From: Escherichia coli
Lineage (GTDB): Bacteria; Pseudomonadota; Gammaproteobacteria; Enterobacterales; Enterobacteriaceae
Length of the DNA stretch: 64,000 nucleotides
Assembly (NCBI RefSeq): GCF_003334305.1
Contig: NZ_QOWS01000010.1
Strand: one strand, 5' to 3'
Notes under the pieces: model-generated
What the model was told of the DNA's origin: nothing
Seen by the model: the letters and a program-made list of their open reading frames with translations, nothing else
Databases searched by the model: none
Translations under genes and position numbers: made by a program
Shown here: positions 35,591 to 41,114 of the stretch, one piece after another
How the letters are laid out: each line of letters starts with the position of its first letter
Position numbering within the stretch: position 1 is the stretch's first letter

Positions 35591-36205
35591 GATTGTCTGC
35601 TCCCCTGTCTTGTTATGTGAGCAGTATTCAGGAATAAAAACATTCATTAAAAGAATTAGTCGTTATCGCACAGATGATTTTATTCTTAGCAAAAAAACGG
35701 CAAAGGAAAGATTAAATATGCAATTACTCCGTTCTAACAATTGGGAAAATTACTACACTTCATTTTAGTGATGCATAAACAACCACATTACGAGATTTAT
35801 TACTTCATTATTTCTATCAATATCAATACATATAATAAAACTATTATATTCGCATTGTATATATCACTGTATCATTCTCAATCACTCGCATATTACATTC
35901 ACATAATGTATATAAACAATACTTGTTCACAGAACATATTTTTTAAATGCAATTAATTGACAAACTAAATCACATCTAAATACAATGTATAACACAAAAT
36001 AACTATACATACCAAACATACAAACACTTAACATATGAATTGCATAAAAACATTACCCAGTCGAACCTCCGGGTCTGAAAGCCCTTGCTTTTCAGTTATT
36101 AGCAACATTTAACATTTATAAATTAACATCTGGCTGCGCCAGAGATTACGTCTCTGAGTGCATCGTTGTGCTTGTAGTATAATAAATAAAATGGAGTGTC
36201 ATTAA

Positions 36206-36877
36206 GTGGATAAGGTTTTAGATTCAGCCCTCCTTTCTTCGGCAAATAAAAGAAAGGGTATCCTTGCTATTGGCGCACATCCTGACGATATAGAATTAGG
36301 CTGTGGCGCATCGCTTGCTCGTCTTGCGCAAAAAGGAATTTATATCGCAGCCGTGGTGATGACTACCGGCAACTCTGGTACAGATGGAATAATCGATCGC
36401 CATGAAGAATCGCGCAACGCCCTAAAGATATTAGGGTGCCACCAAACTATTCATCTTAATTTTGCTGACACCCGCGCTCATTTACAGCTCAATGATATGA
36501 TTTCCGCTCTGGAAGACATCATTAAAAATCAAATTCCTTCTGATGTTGAAATCATGCGGGTATATACCATGCATGATGCCGACCGCCATCAGGATCATCT
36601 CGCTGTTTATCAAGCTTCAATGGTTGCCTGCCGCACTATTCCACAAATTCTCGGCTACGAAACCCCAAGTACCTGGCTTTCATTTATGCCTCAGGTTTTT
36701 GAATCCGTTAAAGAAGAATATTTCACAGTCAAACTTGCTGCATTAAAAAAACATAAAAGCCAGGAACGACGCGATTATATGCGTCATGATCGCCTGCGTG
36801 CAGTTGCACAATTTCGCGGGCAACAGGTCAATAGCGATCTGGGTGAAGGCTTTGTAATTCATAAAATGATTCTTTGA
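36206..36877 (+). CDS. yaiS: PIG-L/LmbE family N-acetylglucosaminyl deacetylase-like protein YaiS
   Basis: 223 codons from GTG 36206 (GGAG 9 nt upstream); AHPDD motif near N-terminus and HQDH motif typical of LmbE-like zinc deacetylases. Confidence 0.8.
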   Translation: MDKVLDSALLSSANKRKGILAIGAHPDDIELGCGASLARLAQKGIYIAAVVMTTGNSGTDGIIDRHEESRNALKILGCHQTIHLNFADTRAHLQLNDMISALEDIIKNQIPSDVEIMRVYTMHDADRHQDHLAVYQASMVACRTIPQILGYETPSTWLSFMPQVFESVKEEYFTVKLAALKKHKSQERRDYMRHDRLRAVAQFRGQQVNSDLGEGFVIHKMIL

Positions 36878-36886
36878 GCAAATTGC

Positions 36887-38083
36887 ATGAAAACCTGGAT
36901 ATTTATCTGTATGTCCATAGCAATGTTGCTATGGTTTTTAAGTACGCTAAGACGTAAACCCAGTCAAAAGAAAGGCTGTATTGACGCCATTATACCTGCG
37001 TATAACGAAGGCCCGTGTCTGGCGCAGTCACTGGATAATCTACTGCGTAACCCTTATTTTTGCCGGGTAATTTGCGTTAACGACGGCTCCACGGACAATA
37101 CCGAAGCGGTCATGGCGGAAGTCAAACGCAAATGGGGCGACCGCTTTGTTGCCGTCACGCAAAAAAATACCGGTAAAGGTGGTGCGCTGATGAATGGCCT
37201 CAATTATGCCACCTGCGACCAGGTTTTTTTAAGTGATGCCGACACCTATGTTCCGCCCGATCAAGACGGAATGGGCTATATGCTGGCAGAAATTGAGCGC
37301 GGTGCTGATGCCGTAGGCGGCATTCCCTCTACTGCGTTGAAAGGCGCGGGGCTGTTACCGCACATCCGCGCGACCGTAAAGTTGCCGATGATTGTTATGA
37401 AGCGCACGCTACAGCAGCTCCTGGGCGGCGCACCGTTTATTATCAGCGGTGCCTGCGGAATGTTCCGCACTGATGTATTGCGTAAGTTCGGTTTCTCAGA
37501 TCGTACTAAAGTCGAAGACCTTGATCTCACCTGGACATTAGTGGCAAACGGCTACCGTATTCGGCAGGCGAATCGCTGCATCGTATACCCACAGGAATGC
37601 AACAGCCCGCGTGAGGAGTGGCGTCGCTGGCGGCGTTGGATTGTGGGATACGCGGTCTGTATGCGCCTGCATAAAAGACTTTTATTTAGCCGCTTCGGTA
37701 TCTTCAGTATATTTCCTATGCTGTTGGTTGTGATTTATGGCGTTGGGATTTATCTCACTACCTGGTTTAATGAATTCATCACCACCGGGCCGCATGGTGT
37801 GGTGTTGGCAATGTTTCCGCTTATCTGGATCGGCGTAGTTTGTGTTATTGGTGCTTTTAGCGCCTGGTTTCATCGTTGCTGGTTGTTGGTGCCTTTAGCG
37901 CCGCTTTCCGTTGTGTATGTATTATTAGCTTATGCCATCTGGATTATTTATGGACTTATTGCCTTTTTTACTGGACGCGAACCTCAGCGCGACAAACCCA
38001 CCCGCTATTCCGCACTGGTGGAAGCGTCAACCGCTTATTCCCAACCTTCTGTCACAGGAACTGAAAAACTATCTGAAGCTTAA
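36887..38083 (+). CDS. yaiP: Membrane-anchored family 2 glycosyltransferase YaiP
   Basis: 398-aa ORF; N-terminal TM helix, GT2 core (IIPAYNEG, DAD), RRWRRW motif, several C-terminal hydrophobic helices. Confidence 0.85.
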   Translation: MKTWIFICMSIAMLLWFLSTLRRKPSQKKGCIDAIIPAYNEGPCLAQSLDNLLRNPYFCRVICVNDGSTDNTEAVMAEVKRKWGDRFVAVTQKNTGKGGALMNGLNYATCDQVFLSDADTYVPPDQDGMGYMLAEIERGADAVGGIPSTALKGAGLLPHIRATVKLPMIVMKRTLQQLLGGAPFIISGACGMFRTDVLRKFGFSDRTKVEDLDLTWTLVANGYRIRQANRCIVYPQECNSPREEWRRWRRWIVGYAVCMRLHKRLLFSRFGIFSIFPMLLVVIYGVGIYLTTWFNEFITTGPHGVVLAMFPLIWIGVVCVIGAFSAWFHRCWLLVPLAPLSVVYVLLAYAIWIIYGLIAFFTGREPQRDKPTRYSALVEASTAYSQPSVTGTEKLSEA

Positions 38084-38642
38084 TGTTAAAGAGAAAAATA
38101 TTCAGATTGCAGACCAGGTAATTATTGATGAAACTGCAGGTGAAGTTGTTATCGGCGCGAATACCCGTATTTGTCATGGTGCCGTTATTCAGGGTCCGGT
38201 AGTAATTGGCGCAAACTGCCTGATAGGTAATTATGCGTTTATTCGTCCTGGCACAATAATCAGCAATGGTGTAAAAATTGGTTTTGCCACCGAAATTAAA
38301 AATGCGGTTATTGAAGCGGAAGCAACGATTGGTCCGCAATGTTTTATTGCCGACTCGGTAGTTGCAAACCAGGCATATTTGGGCGCACAAGTACGTACCA
38401 GTAATCATCGTCTGGATGAACAGCCTGTGTCTGTTCGAACTCCAGAGGGAATTATCGCTACCGGATGCGATAAATTAGGTTGTTATATCGGGCAGCGTTC
38501 ACGCCTTGGCGTACAAGTTATAATTTTGCCTGGGCGAATTATTTCCCCGAACACGCAACTTGGCCCGCGCGTGATTGTAGAACGTAATTTACCTGCCGGA
38601 ACTTATTCACTCCGACAAGAACTTATCCGTACAGGAGATTAA
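37932..38642 (+). CDS. yaiX: Hexapeptide-repeat (left-handed beta-helix) acyl/acetyltransferase YaiX; start uncertain
   Basis: Repeated [LIV]GxxxxI hexapeptides (IGANTRICHGAVIQGPVVIGANCLIGNYAFIRPG...); frame overlaps yaiP 3' end by 152 nt and no ATG/GTG/TTG lies in frame downstream of the yaiP stop. Confidence 0.65.
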   Translation: MPSGLFMDLLPFLLDANLSATNPPAIPHWWKRQPLIPNLLSQELKNYLKLNVKEKNIQIADQVIIDETAGEVVIGANTRICHGAVIQGPVVIGANCLIGNYAFIRPGTIISNGVKIGFATEIKNAVIEAEATIGPQCFIADSVVANQAYLGAQVRTSNHRLDEQPVSVRTPEGIIATGCDKLGCYIGQRSRLGVQVIILPGRIISPNTQLGPRVIVERNLPAGTYSLRQELIRTGD

Positions 38643-38643
38643 A

Positions 38644-39417
38644 ATGATAAAACGGACGTTATTAGCGGCGGCCATTTTTAGCGCATTGCCCGCTTATGCC
38701 GGGTTAACTTCCATTACCGCGGGCTACGATTTTACCGATTATTCTGGCGATCATGGCAACCGTAATTTAGCGTATGCTGAACTGGTGGCGAAAGTTGAAA
38801 ACGCAACGCTGCTTTTTAATCTTTCCCAGGGGCGTCGTGATTATGAAACTGAACATTTCAATGCCACTCGCGGTCAGGGTGCGGTCTGGTATAAATGGAA
38901 TAACTGGCTGACAACCCGAACGGGTATTGCCTTTGCGGATAATACGCCGGTCTTTGCCCGCCAGGATTTTCGTCAGGATATTAACCTGGCCCTGTTGCCA
39001 AAAACGCTTTTCACGACCGGTTATCGCTACACTAAATATTACGATGATGTCGAAGTCGATGCCTGGCAAGGCGGCGTATCACTCTATACTGGCCCGGTGA
39101 TCACCAGCTACCGCTATACCCATTATGACTCCAGCGATGCAGGTGGTAGTTATAGCAATATGATTTCCGTGCGTCTGAATGACCCGCGCGGCACTGGTTA
39201 TACGCAACTATGGCTAAGCCGCGGAACAGGCGCTTACACCTATGACTGGACGCCAGAAACACGCTACGGCAGCATGAAGAGCGTCAGTCTGCAACGTATT
39301 CAACCGCTGACTGAGCAACTTAATCTCGGGCTGACGGCAGGTAAAGTGTGGTACGACACCCCAACCGATGATTATAACGGTCTGCAACTTGCAGCCCATC
39401 TGACCTGGAAATTCTGA
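38644..39417 (+). CDS. yaiO: Outer-membrane beta-barrel protein YaiO
   Basis: 257-aa ORF, signal peptide (…ALPAYA|G), alternating amphipathic strands, C-terminal …LTWKF; AGGAG SD; ATG one nt after yaiX stop. Confidence 0.88.
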   Translation: MIKRTLLAAAIFSALPAYAGLTSITAGYDFTDYSGDHGNRNLAYAELVAKVENATLLFNLSQGRRDYETEHFNATRGQGAVWYKWNNWLTTRTGIAFADNTPVFARQDFRQDINLALLPKTLFTTGYRYTKYYDDVEVDAWQGGVSLYTGPVITSYRYTHYDSSDAGGSYSNMISVRLNDPRGTGYTQLWLSRGTGAYTYDWTPETRYGSMKSVSLQRIQPLTEQLNLGLTAGKVWYDTPTDDYNGLQLAAHLTWKF

Positions 39418-39526
39418 TTCCTTCTGCCGCCCGCTATCCGGGGCGGCCTTCCCTGCCGATTAGCCCCCCCCTTTCCTCTTTGTTTTCCGACCACATTCAC
39501 CGGATAAATTTTATTCTCCAGTGTTA

Positions 39527-39577
39527 TATACTATAGGGGGGTATGCATTGACATATAGCATACCCCCCTATAGTATA
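39527..39577 (+). promoter_or_regulatory. frmRAB promoter embedded in FrmR operator palindrome
   Basis: Perfect 20-bp inverted repeat TATACTATAGGGGGGTATGC / GCATACCCCCCTATAGTATA around an 11-bp spacer containing TTGACA (39548-39553); TAGTAT -10 candidate 17 bp downstream. Confidence 0.7.
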
Positions 39578-39602
39578 TTGTGTGCAGATAATGAGGTGCG
39601 AA

Positions 39603-39878
39603 ATGCCCAGTACTCCGGAAGAGAAGAAAAAGGTCCTTACTCGAGTTCGTCGTATTCGAGGGCAGATTGATGCTCTGGAACGGTCGCTGGAGGGTGATGC
39701 CGAATGCCGTGCCATACTCCAACAGATCGCTGCCGTTCGGGGCGCGGCTAATGGGCTGATGGCAGAAGTGCTTGAAAGCCATATCCGGGAAACGTTTGAC
39801 CGAAATGACTGCTACAGCCGCGAAGTCAGCCAATCCGTTGACGACACTATTGAACTGGTTCGAGCCTATCTTAAATAG
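39603..39878 (+). CDS. frmR: Formaldehyde-responsive repressor FrmR (RcnR/CsoR family)
   Basis: 91 codons from ATG 39603 ([30 protein letters not shown]...). Confidence 0.9.
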
Positions 39879-39882
39879 CTGA

Positions 39883-41022
<1,140 letters not shown>

Positions 41023-41114
41023 TTTCCCGCAGGTATACCCCGTCCACTTCAGACGGGGTTCTTAATACTCTCCCTGGGCAGCCGTCCGGGGGATTAACCG
41101 TGAGATAATGACTG

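Follow-up and report, generated by a model that had tools for sequence, protein, structure and literature searches.

A GC-rich stem-loop and a length-polymorphic C-rich tract as a candidate Rho-dependent end of the yaiP-yaiX-yaiO gene block in Escherichia coli

The region described here lies in a stretch of 64,000 nucleotides of Escherichia coli DNA, called the window throughout, in which yaiO codes for an outer-membrane beta-barrel protein of the YaiO family. Next on the same strand come frmR, which opens a separately regulated downstream operon, and frmA. The identities assigned to yaiO, frmR and frmA agree with the RefSeq annotation of near-identical loci. Since yaiP, yaiX and yaiO abut or overlap, yaiO forms the end of a compact gene block, and the features found between this block and frmRAB are collected in Table 1 together with their counterparts in other genomes. 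The yaiX reading frame (37932-38642), which encodes an acetyltransferase-like, left-handed beta-helix protein, is intact in the window; RefSeq gives the gene a shorter start in related strains, with a 193-aa product, and in K-12 we take it to be a pseudogene disrupted by IS2. No complete RefSeq genome is 100% identical to the window over 39300-39620, the best match being 99.7% identical. An ORF of 42 aa on the minus strand (39372-39500) was set aside as spurious, since its frame would be shifted by length changes in the polymorphic tract, which it overlaps together with the end of yaiO.

Table 1. Features at the yaiO-frmR junction of the window and corresponding regions in other genomes
Feature	Position	Strand	Basis
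yaiO, YaiO-family outer-membrane beta-barrel protein	38644-39417	+	ORF list and RefSeq annotation of near-identical loci
yaiO stop codon TGA	39415-39417	+	direct sequence reading
GC stem-loop, 7 bp, 8-nt loop, without U-tract	39426-39447	+	sequence reading, folding
Pyrimidine-dominated tract, rich in C and poor in G; putative rut (Rho loading) region	39448-39510	+	composition, C>G bubble
C8 homopolymer, length-polymorphic	39464-39471	+	sequence reading, strain comparison
Right-hand junction of the variable yaiS-yaiO island	39499-39500	.	strains without the island
frmRAB promoter-operator palindrome	39526-39580	+	promoter scan; PMC5146963
frm -35 hexamer TTGACA	39548-39553	+	promoter scan
frm -10 hexamer TAGTAT	39571-39576	+	promoter scan
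frmR, first gene of the downstream operon	39603-39878	+	ORF list and RefSeq annotation of near-identical loci
frmA	39913-41022	+	ORF list and RefSeq annotation of near-identical loci
ISEc20 copy in the tract, E. coli WCHEC005215	L010 4171-5619 (equivalent to window 39464-39471)
Post-yaiO region, Escherichia whittamii	L021 3275-3400		hairpin without T-run, C-rich, G-poor tail
Post-yaiO region, Citrobacter braakii	L023 3284-3400		hairpin without T-run, C-rich, G-poor tail

The anatomy of the yaiO 3' region is directly established. Eight bases, TTCCTTCT, separate the stop codon from a stem that begins at the ninth base, with arms GCCGCCC (39426-39432) and GGGCGGC (39441-39447) closed by all-G/C pairs around the loop GCTATCCG; the predicted fold has a free energy of about -16 kcal/mol and a pair probability of about 1. 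Past the stem the order is CCTTCCCTGCCGATTAG, then the run of eight C, then TTTCCTCTTTGTTTTCC. Direct reading thus bears out the two structural statements of the preliminary description, namely a hairpin nine nt after the yaiO stop that lacks a T-run, and a C-rich, G-poor stretch carrying C8 at 39464-39471. Perfect 7-bp G/C-rich hairpins number about 10 distinct examples in the 64-kb window, compared with 5.25 +/- 2.4 in dinucleotide shuffles, so that such a hairpin is by itself not rare and its location right after the last stop codon of the operon is the informative part. Another, CCCCGTC...GACGGGG, lies between frmA and frmB at 41038-41058, 16 nt past the frmA stop. Neither a known RNA family nor a repetitive extragenic element was found here. 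A scan of 38900-40100 against Rfam returned no match on the hairpin or the C tract, its sub-threshold eukaryotic miRNA matches falling on the FrmR operator palindrome, and a REP/BIME element was rejected on the finding that a 78-nt query including the right-hand (3') stem arm occurs at a median of 1 and a maximum of 2 places per genome.

The composition of the sequence downstream of the stem is exceptional, and is likewise a matter of direct count. The 60 nt from 39448 hold 25 C and 7 G and rank in the top 0.03% for C-minus-G, windows of 40-60 nt past the stem reach the top 0.01-0.1% of both strands in C-minus-G and also in YC dinucleotides, and among 78-nt windows on the plus strand of the 64-kb window C-minus-G is greatest at 39424-39501. 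Measured with the 78-nt sliding window that defines C>G bubbles after Nadiras et al. 2018 (PMC6144790), the region forms a bubble with centres from 39357 to 39519 (163 bp), an area of 2388 %.bp and a peak of 28%, which ranks 1 of 795 on the plus strand and 2 of 1590 on both strands. Six YC dimers spaced 9-13 nt apart make up a (YC)N9-13 chain within the bubble. The homopolymer is statistically plain. Runs of at least 8 C or G occur once in the 64 kb against 0.98 in shuffles and so are not over-represented, and C8 is the sole C or G run of at least 7, where 4.3 would be expected.

The putative loading region is untranslated, lying between the yaiO stop and frmR, the next sense gene, which begins at 39603. 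The C8 run is predicted to be unpaired with a probability of 0.89. For the segment 39448-39510 the mean unpaired probability is only 0.46 in the predicted fold of a 260-nt read-through RNA, and the same segment is mostly unpaired in a 131-nt fold; in the long read-through RNA the pyrimidine tail is predicted to be able to pair with the purine-rich start of frmR, a point against the Rho reading.

Immediately to the right lies the frm promoter. The published frm promoter carries a large inverted repeat centred at -29 (PMC5146963), and the window contains at the corresponding place a large perfect palindrome (39526-39580) that constitutes the tandem FrmR operator overlapping the promoter; in read-through RNA from yaiO this palindrome is predicted to fold as a very stable hairpin. 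The window departs from all nine aligned E. coli genomes at 39581, right at the predicted start of frm transcription, by having T in place of C. The hairpin and the C-rich tail belong to the other side of a junction, on a variable island (35629-39499) that comprises yaiS-ykiC-yaiP-yaiX-yaiO and carries both elements at its right end. Strain S4 lacks the island and has 164 bp with a REP element instead, homology resuming at 39500, and in O157:H7 a ferric-type ABC transporter replaces the island, homology resuming at 39511. The tract region is present in 3,944 of the 5,417 genomes that have frmR, and strains in which everything to the left of 39500 is missing still have a complete frm promoter. 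Because the C tract lies on the island side and the frm promoter of strains without the island retains nothing to the left of 39500 or 39511, we do not count the tract as part of the frm regulatory region.

Variation in the tract among E. coli strains is extensive and is observed rather than predicted. The 15 loci that were read directly carry C6, C7, C8, C9, C10, C11, CCCCACTCCC, CCCCTATCCCC or GCCCCTC at this place, while the adjoining hairpin is identical in all 15. Exact-match searches with 35-nt flanks and a strict E-value across 5,426 complete genomes gave 1201 records with C7, 858 with C8, 316 with C9 and 639 with C10 among about 3,945 E. coli records that have the region, with C6, C11 and interrupted forms also present. 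Interrupted alleles, which are not slippery, are common. Every K-12 strain sampled has C10, and every B strain sampled (BL21, BLR) has C8 and matches the window exactly over 78 nt. A single YaiO protein allele may accompany several lengths, WP_000596085.1 being found with C6, C7 and C9 and WP_000596084.1 with C10 and C11, which indicates that length changes faster than point substitutions accumulate, as slippage predicts. Errors may lie behind rare lengths in assemblies built from long reads only, but the major length classes are far too frequent to be explained in this way. An apparent case of switching within a strain, 'EcN_Sk' (C10) against 'EcN' (C9), was rejected because the two records differ in flanking haplotype.

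The tract is also a site of transposon insertion. In 87 of the 5,426 complete E. coli genomes a copy of ISEc20 (IS110 family, 1449 bp) lies inside it, in the order TTAGCCCCCC, IS, CCCCCCTTTCC. Strain names suggest that these genomes belong mostly to one ST167-like lineage, so that perhaps only one or two insertion events are represented. C runs likewise border four further ISEc20 copies, which lie in unrelated genes, and this suggests that the element has a C-run target preference; a scan of ISEc20 against Rfam for a guide RNA matched no family.

Comparison with other species shows which parts of the layout recur. One scan of species-representative genomes yielded three relatives of yaiO. In Escherichia whittamii, whose YaiO is 97% identical, the hairpin is kept, a single C-to-U change in one of its arms still pairing as U.G, and the layout survives indels: the C-rich tail is longer, with 24 C and 6 G in positions +31 to +90, and the homopolymer is gone (GCGCCCC). 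In Citrobacter braakii, with a YaiO 60% identical, the 7-bp hairpin TCTCCCC/GGGGAGA is of unrelated sequence, again without a T-run and followed by 22 C and 8 G; the next element after this C-rich tail is REP-like. Citrobacter sp. FP75, with a YaiO 80% identical, has neither hairpin nor C-rich tail past yaiO. As the hairpin with its C>G tail occurs in two of the three relatives and the C8 run in none, composition and hairpin appear to matter more than the homopolymer.

We lean, with somewhat better than even confidence, towards the view that transcription of yaiP-yaiX-yaiO ends at a Rho-dependent terminator. Past the yaiO stop the RNA would be free of ribosomes, the very stable GC stem-loop would form, and the roughly 60 nt of C-rich, G-poor, perhaps largely unstructured RNA full of YC dimers beyond it (39448-39510) would serve as the loading site of the Rho hexamer. 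Rho would then translocate and release RNA polymerase tens of bases downstream, within or just before the frmR promoter-operator, and the frm palindrome is the zone where polymerases released by Rho would be expected to stop. Trimming of the tail by 3'-to-5' exonucleases back to the stem-loop would give the yaiO mRNA a stable 3' end, for which the stem-loop is proposed both as the exonuclease barrier and as the steady-state end of the transcript, and the formaldehyde-regulated frmRAB operon would be insulated from read-through. The C8 run would be a mere part of the C-rich tract, its length shifting by replication slippage with no evident regulatory effect. Loading, release position, trimming and insulation are thus steps that we infer from the arrangement of the parts.

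This arrangement finds its closest support in published work on E. coli. Dar and Sorek (2018, PMC6061677) located Rho-dependent 3' ends just past stem-loops that are stable but have no U-tract and are directly followed by an excess of C over G. Their evidence points to PNPase and RNase II as the enzymes that shorten the diffuse ends left by Rho as far as the stem-loop. The region after yaiO has the same layout, and this order of parts is more telling than the bubble descriptors. The latter point in the same direction: in vitro, Rho-dependent termination was seen on all tested templates whose bubble exceeded 78 bp in length or 700 %.bp in area, and the (YC)N9-13 chains of known terminators in that study had 4 members or more (Nadiras 2018, PMC6144790). 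The descriptor is nevertheless permissive rather than specific, as C>G bubbles are very common in E. coli, at about 2.2 per kb and thousands per genome (PMC6144790), and our calculation covered only the bubble and YC descriptors of the full 111-descriptor OPLS-DA model.

Literature searches found no Term-seq or bicyclomycin data for yaiO or frmR and no paper combining frmR with bicyclomycin, the searched supplements of Adams 2021 and RhoTermPredict contain no entry for yaiO, frmR or K-12 coordinates 37999x-38004x, and the papers found on yaiO concern PCR detection or promoter lists, none of them termination. The terminator may rarely be used, since yaiO may be poorly expressed in laboratory conditions. 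The preliminary description had proposed Rho-dependent termination at this place, and that proposal gains from the bubble and YC descriptors, from the stem-loop-then-C>G order and from the two other species, while the action of Rho itself continues to be deduced from sequence.

The alternative to be taken most seriously, though we judge it unlikely, is that the hairpin and C-rich tail are a non-functional leftover at the edge of the horizontally acquired yaiS-yaiO island, with the tract drifting by slippage and transcription, if any, ending wherever chance has it. Such a reading accommodates the position of the element within the final 75 nt of a block that many strains lack or have exchanged for other sequence, the high polymorphism of a tract that tolerates a 1.45-kb insertion in 87 genomes, the lack of the layout in Citrobacter sp. 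FP75 and the genome-wide frequency of C>G bubbles (PMC6144790). It sits poorly with a hairpin that is invariant in all the E. coli loci read when the adjacent tract is not, with a skew peak that ranks first of 795 bubbles on the plus strand, and with the recurrence of a hairpin and C>G tail of unrelated sequence in C. braakii and their persistence through indels in E. whittamii.

Termination by the hairpin itself is a second alternative, and an improbable one. A weak, non-canonical intrinsic terminator would stop RNA polymerase without Rho despite a poor U-tract, and in favour of it the stem is very stable, placed 8 nt past the stop codon and followed by CCUUCCCU with three U residues. Efficient release at intrinsic terminators in E. 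coli needs a U-rich RNA:DNA hybrid. After the yaiO stem T makes up only 3 of the first 8 bases (CCTTCCCT), no A-tract lies upstream, and a terminator scan that needs 5 T in 8 bases found no site at this hairpin. We do not class the hairpin as an intrinsic terminator because it has no U-tract.

That slippage in the C tract acts as a phase-variable switch of frmRAB or yaiO expression in the style of a contingency locus is hardly credible: the range of lengths from C6 to C11 and their variation among strains with an identical YaiO allele are what such a switch would show, but the tract lies 46 nt past the yaiO stop, with the frm -35 hexamer about 77 nt further downstream (which puts the tract at roughly -118 to -111 relative to the predicted frm start, as placed by the -35 and -10 positions), outside any sense ORF and neither within nor between promoter elements, what island-less strains keep of the frm promoter region begins at 39500 or 39511, the K-12 strains sampled are uniformly C10 and the B strains uniformly C8, interrupted, non-slippery alleles are common, and some long-read length calls may be errors. 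The tract is therefore not classed as a contingency locus, given its position outside the frm regulatory region, the variability of the island and the frequency of interrupted alleles. As for the preliminary description, its suggestion that the C tract is a slippage site has held up, comparison among strains showing a length that is anything but invariant, from C6 to C11 with interrupted forms besides, whereas relevance to the frmR promoter, upstream of which it placed the tract, is not supported, the tract lying some 77 nt upstream of the -35 hexamer on a yaiO island without which the frm promoter is complete. Regulatory phase variation of frmR by the tract is unsupported.

A more speculative idea, which we regard as very unlikely, is that the length of the C run could tune Rho loading and hence the leak from the yaiO island into frmRAB, an operon of formaldehyde detoxification, making it a slippage-driven and heritable 'insulator dial', and that the run could in addition be a preferred landing pad of a guide-RNA-directed ISEc20, which would part the two operons by 1.45 kb.

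What emerges is an ordinary operon end, at which slippage is borne out as a polymorphism, though not as a means of regulation. If Rho dependence were confirmed, the site would be one more among the several hundred Rho-dependent 3' ends mapped in E. coli, and it would account for the shielding of the tightly repressed frmRAB operon from a neighbouring gene island that is variably present; neither consequence alters current understanding. The C tract has uses of its own as a ready-made strain-typing polymorphism, yaiO being already a widely used E. coli PCR marker, as a spot where long-read assemblies may miscall length, and as a natural test case for whether homopolymer length within a rut site affects Rho loading.

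Set beside known systems, the region resembles several in part. The occurrence of ISEc20 within the tract in 87 genomes, together with the four C-run-flanked copies elsewhere, recalls the sequence-specific targets of IS110-family elements, although the insertions are in related genomes, may descend from one or two events and are absent from the window. With the homopolymeric contingency loci of Neisseria, Haemophilus and Campylobacter, which vary by slipped-strand mispairing, the tract shares a poly-C run of at least 8 whose length differs by strain, but it lies outside the reading frame and the promoter hexamers and appears fixed in laboratory lineages. Like intrinsic terminators, the region has a GC-rich stem-loop near the stop codon; unlike them, it has neither a U-tract nor an upstream A-tract. 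Canonical rut sites, in the bubble concept of Alifano and the descriptors of Nadiras 2018 (PMC6144790), offer a nearer likeness, the yaiO tract exceeding 78 bp in bubble length and 700 %.bp in bubble area, carrying a (YC)N9-13 chain of 4 or more and being low in G. The class of 3' ends described by Dar and Sorek (2018, PMC6061677) is nearer still. The yaiO region differs from that class in that its rut-like tract includes an unusually long pure C run and stops only about 40 nt before the promoter of the next operon; it agrees with that class in its terminator-sized, stable stem-loop without a U-tract near the gene end, in the C>G segment that comes next, and in the untranslated state of the whole.
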